Source of the DNA: Escherichia coli
GTDB taxonomy: Bacteria; Pseudomonadota; Gammaproteobacteria; Enterobacterales; Enterobacteriaceae
Assembly (NCBI RefSeq): GCF_003334335.1
Contig: NZ_QOWQ01000074.1
Length of the DNA stretch: 6,951 nucleotides
Reading direction: 5' to 3' (one strand)
Positions 1,267-1,596 of the stretch are shown piece after piece (within the stretch, counting starts at the first letter, position 1; every line of letters starts with the position of its first letter). The notes beneath the pieces are model-generated. The model was given only the letters and a program-made list of their open reading frames with translations. It did not search any database and was not told where the DNA came from. The position numbers and the translations under genes were made by a program.

Positions 1267-1596
1267 ATGTCAAAACCCCGATGAACCATTGAACAGAAAA
1301 GGCAGCACGTTGCTGCCTGGCGCGCCAGTGGTCTTACACGTCAGCAATACTGTGAACTCAACGATATTCCCTTCACATCACTTCGCGAATGGCCGCAGGA
1401 TGTCGCAAAAGCTGAACGCCGGGCAAATGAACCGACCGTTCTTCCCATTCATATTGCGCCACCACTGCATGCTGATGTACCACAGCCCGTCACGAATGAG
1501 CCAGTCACGCTCTTCCTTCCCGGTGGAGTACGGATGTGCTGTCAGCCGTCACAACTTACCGATGTCTTCAGGGCACTCAAATATGCTCAGTCCTGA
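1267..1596 (+). pseudogene. tnpA: IS66-family TnpA (orfA, helix-turn-helix protein) interrupted by an in-frame TGA at codon 6 (1282-1284)
   Basis: Frame 1 reads ATG(1267) S K P R TGA T I E Q K R Q H V A A W R A S G L T R Q Q Y C E L N D I P F T S L R E W ... F R A L K Y A Q S, stopping at 1594-1596. The HTH-type motif matches IS66 orfA. There is no ATG, GTG or TTG between the TGA and the HTH region, so a full-length product needs readthrough or a reverted stop. The 3' end overlaps the tnpB start by 14 nt, as in IS66 elements. Confidence 0.6.

Follow-up and report, generated by a model that had tools for sequence, protein, structure and literature searches.

The stretch of DNA analysed here, which we call the window, comprises 6951 bases and is a piece of the E. 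coli chromosome. It opens with the 3' end of agn43, which is followed by an IS66-family insertion sequence resembling ISEc49 and then by a yeeR-family gene that is itself interrupted by an IS21/ISSso4-like element; the remaining part of the yeeR-family gene fills the end of the window (Table 1). At 1109–1133, 20 nt past the stop codon of agn43, lies a perfect palindrome with 12-nt arms (GGTCCCGGTCAT / ATGACCGGGACC), which is probably the agn43 terminator hairpin. At each end of the IS21-like element (~4250–4350 and 6800–6860), a GATCA..TTTGGCAT motif recurs several times, as is typical of the multiple terminal repeats of IS21 elements.

Table 1. Coordinates of the features in the 6951-base window.
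Feature	Position	Strand	Remarks
agn43 (antigen 43 autotransporter), 3' end	runs to 1088		
Target-site duplication, left copy	1172–1179	unstranded	GCATTAAC, 8 bp; direct sequence reading
IS66-family insertion sequence, ISEc49-like	1180–3932	+	2753 bp; between agn43 and the yeeR-family gene
Terminal inverted repeats, imperfect	1186–1206 and 3906–3926		81% complementary
Sigma-70-like promoter match	1202–1229	+	TTCACA-16-TAGTAT, upstream of tnpA; 9/12, consensus scan only
tnpA, accessory HTH protein	1267–1596	+	109 codons; interrupted at codon 6
In-frame TGA in tnpA	1282–1284	+	A at base 1284; all relatives examined have G there (TGG, Trp6)
tnpB, pseudogene	1583–1962	+	13-bp deletion (GGATGAACTCCGG) between 1665 and 1666
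tnpC, DDE transposase	2005–3570	+	521 aa; apparently intact
Target-site duplication, right copy	3933–3940	unstranded	GCATTAAC, identical octamer; both copies abut the IS ends
yeeR-family gene, N-terminal remnant	3970–4233		
IS21/ISSso4-like element	~4250–6860		interrupts the yeeR-family gene
istA, frameshifted	4467–6001		two overlapping ORFs, 4356–4961 and 4808–6001
istB, intact	6018–6773		

When copies of the IS66 element at unrelated loci are aligned with the window, the alignment opens exactly at 1180 and closes at about 3926–3933, and the 8-bp repeat GCATTAAC found on either side is the target duplication expected of the IS66 family. Read on the complementary strand, the right end starts with GTAAGCTTCCGGGG (GTAAGC), which is typical of the family, and the left end starts with GTGTCGTTACGGGG (GTGTCG). 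Since the left and right tips differ when 1180–1193 is compared with 3919–3932, the terminal inverted repeats are imperfect at their very tips.

The transposase is called 'IS66-like element ISEc49 family' by PGAP, and in a profile search tnpA, tnpB, and tnpC each matched their own NCBIfam IS66 model. The match of tnpC to NF033517 (transpos_IS66) has an E value of 3.9e-132 and a score of 441 bits (cut-off 180); an intact tnpB orthologue scores 115 bits against NF033819 (IS66_TnpB; E=9e-34, cut-off 50), and tnpA, with its Trp restored, 49.8 bits against NF047593 (IS66 TnpA; E=3.6e-13, cut-off 28). The locus has the following marks of an IS66-family member: the DDE transposase, tnpB (although frameshifted), tnpA as the first ORF (although broken at codon 6), inverted repeats, and the 8-bp duplication. 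The tnpC gene has the same length as its orthologue in strain ATCC 25922 and shows two substitutions with respect to the copy in strain AF58.

The 360 nt of the element that lie 3' of tnpC (3571–3932) are non-coding. This tail contains a long hairpin with arms at 3576–3593 and 3626–3643 that are 94% complementary, as well as three 16-nt repeats resembling CCCGRGTCAGTACWTC, which start at 3710, 3743, and 3776 and are thus spaced by exactly 33 nt. Tandem Repeats Finder reported no match in the non-coding tail; the three spaced 16-mers emerged from a separate repeat search. They might be protein-binding sites near the right end of the element.

Within tnpA, frame 1 of 1267–1599 translates as MSKPR-stop-TIEQKRQHVAAWRASGLTRQQYCELNDIPF...KYAQS-stop-stop, with the proper stop codon of the gene at 1594–1596. 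This bears out the earlier note, which had described an in-frame TGA six codons into the gene in the frame MSKPR-stop-TIEQ. PGAP places tnpA at exactly 1267–1596 in sibling genomes that share the locus. The helix-turn-helix (HTH) region is covered by the NCBIfam IS66 TnpA model at residues 10–90 and, with a weak E value of 0.0055, by Pfam HTH_Tnp_1 at residues 3–52. A scan of frame 1 past the TGA for ATG, GTG, TTG, CTG, and ATN codons yielded nothing usable before codon 90. The first in-frame ATG, GTG, or TTG after the stop is the ATG at codon 90 (position 1534), and no Shine-Dalgarno sequence precedes the ATT, a non-canonical start, at codon 8. A product restarted at codon 90 would lack the whole HTH domain, and the claim that no alternative start precedes this region holds. 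On the minus strand, a T-run comes after an 8-bp hairpin in the segment 1300–1318 inside tnpA, and the combination scores as terminator-like; as a consensus match, this putative signal could block transcription that enters the element from the opposite direction.

The same 6951-bp arrangement occurs in ten complete E. coli genomes. Seven of these loci were retrieved, and all seven have a G at position 1284, so that codon 6 reads TGG. Strains DETEC-S792, NMBU-W12E19, S1-KEN-03-A, 99RCEF, SW070917, and UPEC-245U, together with strain G1/2, share the whole 6951-bp locus with the window. The first six of these loci were compared with the window base by base. Between 2 and 9 bases separate the window from the sibling loci, which show a comparably small number of differences among themselves. 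In the closest genome, DETEC-S792, only 2 of 6951 positions differ, namely 1284 (A in the window, G in DETEC-S792) and 4056 (T and G, respectively), and both variants are private to the window with respect to the sibling loci. The change at 4056, where all six sibling loci have a G, is synonymous and falls inside the truncated yeeR-family remnant. In the sibling genomes, PGAP annotates an intact 109-aa TnpA (WP_042014874.1) at the equivalent coordinates.

We then searched for the A allele in larger collections, which do not include the genome that the window comes from. Across 5,426 complete E. coli genomes, a 40-nt probe centred on A1284 matched nowhere, whereas the control probe of the same length with a G matched 282 places in 259 genomes. 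As megablast requires an exact word of 28 bases, a centred 40-nt probe seeds only on targets that share the A. A 100-nt allele probe had no 100% match in the 5,426 genomes or in 72,556 plasmids, the best match being 99.0% identical; this probe could overlook a copy in which the A is accompanied by a further mismatch and is superseded by the 40-nt centred probe. An exact pattern with R at 1284 retrieved 18 contigs, 17 from metagenomes and one from GTDB, all of which read TGG. Trp6 is also retained in TnpA proteins of no more than 64–67% identity. The TGA is therefore a private TGG→TGA change (W6*) caused by a G→A transition. The earlier note had taken the stop for a point nonsense change and had proposed to look in other copies of the element for TGG, CGA, or a similar codon; the codon is TGG in all of them.

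A second lesion affects tnpB, which overlaps tnpA by 14 nt (ATG at 1583). Alignment with the intact copies of ATCC 25922 and FWSEC0007 shows that tnpB, a gene of 130 codons, loses its frame near codon 28, and the same 13 bp are missing relative to the AF58 copy. The deletion is common to all ten sibling loci, and PGAP flags tnpB as a pseudogene in the siblings. Since all siblings carry it, the deletion is older than the TGA in tnpA. The TGA thus came as the second hit and does not account for the predicted loss of autonomy.

The tnpA, tnpB, and tnpC genes are reportedly each needed for transposition of IS679. By analogy with that element, rather than from ISEc49 itself, TnpA and TnpB would both be needed here, and autonomous transposition is predicted to have been lost through the tnpB frameshift together with the nonsense codon in tnpA. 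The tnpB deletion is the predicted primary reason for the non-autonomy of the copy. Of the two alternatives in the earlier note, a non-autonomous copy unable to make TnpA is still the best reading of the locus; what does not stand is the TGA as the cause, as the 13-bp deletion in tnpB came first. With the IS ends and the target duplication intact, the copy could possibly be mobilised in trans if the cell contains another ISEc49.

Comparison with other strains places these lesions in sequence. Strain AF58 carries an intact ISEc49 at the identical site between agn43 and the yeeR-family gene, with the same target duplication and the same tnpA-tnpB-tnpC layout; over 1100–4000, it is separated from the window by seven substitutions and by the 13-bp tnpB deletion of the window. 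ISEc49 with intact tnpA, tnpB, and tnpC is also found beside agn43 in ATCC 25922 and CFT073, with the insertion site, target duplication, and gene layout shared with the window. In these two strains (positions 4724–6724 of the ATCC 25922 locus), a second IS66-family element, of the type with a 225-aa TnpA, follows immediately downstream, and similarity to the window stops at about window position 3880. In the copies of AF58, ATCC 25922, and CFT073, codon 6 is TGG and tnpB is uninterrupted, whereas the window has both W6* and the 13-bp deletion. The sibling loci are intermediate: they share the tnpB deletion and the frameshifted istA of the window, yet their tnpA is intact. In strains G1/2, G6/7, and G8, the defective copy has lost a further 83 bp from tnpC, equivalent to 2257–2339 of the window, which is an independent further decay of the locus in the G1/2 lineage. 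From these sequence comparisons, the locus appears to hold a fixed, vertically inherited IS copy that is decaying stepwise in separate branches.

An error of sequencing, polishing, or assembly, with a true G at 1284 and an intact tnpA in the source strain, would account for an A that is unique among all sequences searched and for a window that departs from its nearest relative at just two private positions, 1284 and 4056; repeated elements are, moreover, places where polishing can fail. However, the change is a substitution outside any homopolymer, which is not the usual type of long-read error, and mis-polishing from paralogous copies of the element cannot yield an A, because the 40-nt probe found no E. 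coli copy that has one. Two private differences in 7 kb are normal strain divergence in view of the distances between the window and its siblings, and at 4056, the second private position, the substitution is synonymous and ordinary. We consider such an error unlikely. Readthrough of the TGA, which the earlier note had offered as the alternative to loss of TnpA, does not hold up as a designed feature, for the stop is private, occurring at none of the 282 E. coli places and in none of the 18 metagenome and GTDB contigs, and no recoding signal was detected. An 8-bp hairpin at 1301–1318, 16 nt past the in-frame UGA, would be the element to invoke for programmed recoding, whether as selenocysteine or through a dedicated readthrough signal; yet all TGG copies share this hairpin, which in them encodes RQHVAAW, and its fold energy is unexceptional (z = −1.5 in a folding of 1275–1350). 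A permissive Rfam scan of 1180–1620 (E ≤ 10) returned neither a SECIS nor another RNA family beyond chance matches, so that folding and scan together gave nothing for selenocysteine or structured readthrough. The in-frame UGA is the sole likeness to known cases of programmed UGA recoding, such as bacterial selenocysteine and leaky opal stops; unlike these, the tnpA stop is unconserved, a SECIS is absent, and the gene family has no recoding history. We attach next to no probability to programmed recoding, and the lack of conservation of the stop among the sequences compared, with Trp in its place in the 64–67% identical TnpA proteins as well, effectively refutes it.

Readthrough might instead be leaky and still useful, with Trp-tRNA(Trp) decoding a few per cent of the UGAs and the allele acting as a hypomorph that would continue to support or tune transposition. 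Such readthrough would yield wild-type TnpA, Trp being the ancestral residue. RF2 is more active in natural isolates than in K-12, however, and readthrough is therefore likely to lie below the K-12 figures. In E. coli K-12, readthrough of a UGA reporter is ~2% at 37 °C and rises to ~4% at 25 °C, and how much occurs is determined by Trp-tRNA(Trp) and RF2 competing for the codon (PMC10570021). Against a useful role, tnpB is frameshifted in the same copy, so that trace amounts of TnpA cannot restore autonomy, and as the TGA allele is private, nothing suggests selection. We give this reading very little credence, and scarcely any to the related proposal that the opal codon at a Trp site would supply TnpA at the per-cent level and, with TnpB provided in trans by another ISEc49 copy of the cell, make the copy a naturally attenuated, growth-condition-dependent source rather than a null. 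Background readthrough surely takes place at some level, but misreading of UGA by Trp-tRNA, with Trp restored, would be a by-product and not a mechanism.

We thus regard it as very probable that the A at 1284 is a strain-private G→A change, a neutral second hit in an old and fixed copy of ISEc49 that was already without tnpB. The 13-bp deletion in tnpB would have arisen in the ancestor of the lineage and left a non-autonomous copy on whose genes selection no longer acted. The G→A change at 1284 would then have turned the conserved Trp6 codon, TGG, into an opal stop. Ribosomes would terminate after MSKPR, and with no usable restart codon, TnpA with its HTH region would not be made. The early stop in tnpA should also lower translation of the downstream genes tnpB and tnpC, because the ORFs of IS66-family elements are reported to be translationally coupled (PMC3469429, with reference to Han et al. 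2001). As tnpB was already null, the new stop in tnpA would be selectively neutral. In the intact gene, 40 of the 981 possible single-base substitutions (4.1%), and 16 of the 327 transitions (4.9%), create a stop codon; with about 4% of substitutions making stops and a copy that would not be under selection, one nonsense change is unremarkable.

In non-autonomous, pseudogenised IS copies in general, frameshifts and nonsense changes pile up while the ends stay intact, and the window shows nothing distinctive in this respect. W6* is ordinary mutational decay in a pseudogenised IS66-family copy of a well-known kind. For annotation, this means that tnpA at 1267–1596 should be called a pseudogene with an internal stop, neither a gene nor a recoding candidate; the private SNP could be used as a strain marker. 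For the element itself, the strains compared suggest a stepwise order of decay, from the intact copies in AF58, ATCC 25922, and CFT073, through the loss of tnpB in a sub-lineage, to the loss of tnpA in the strain studied here and of tnpC in the G1/2 strains.
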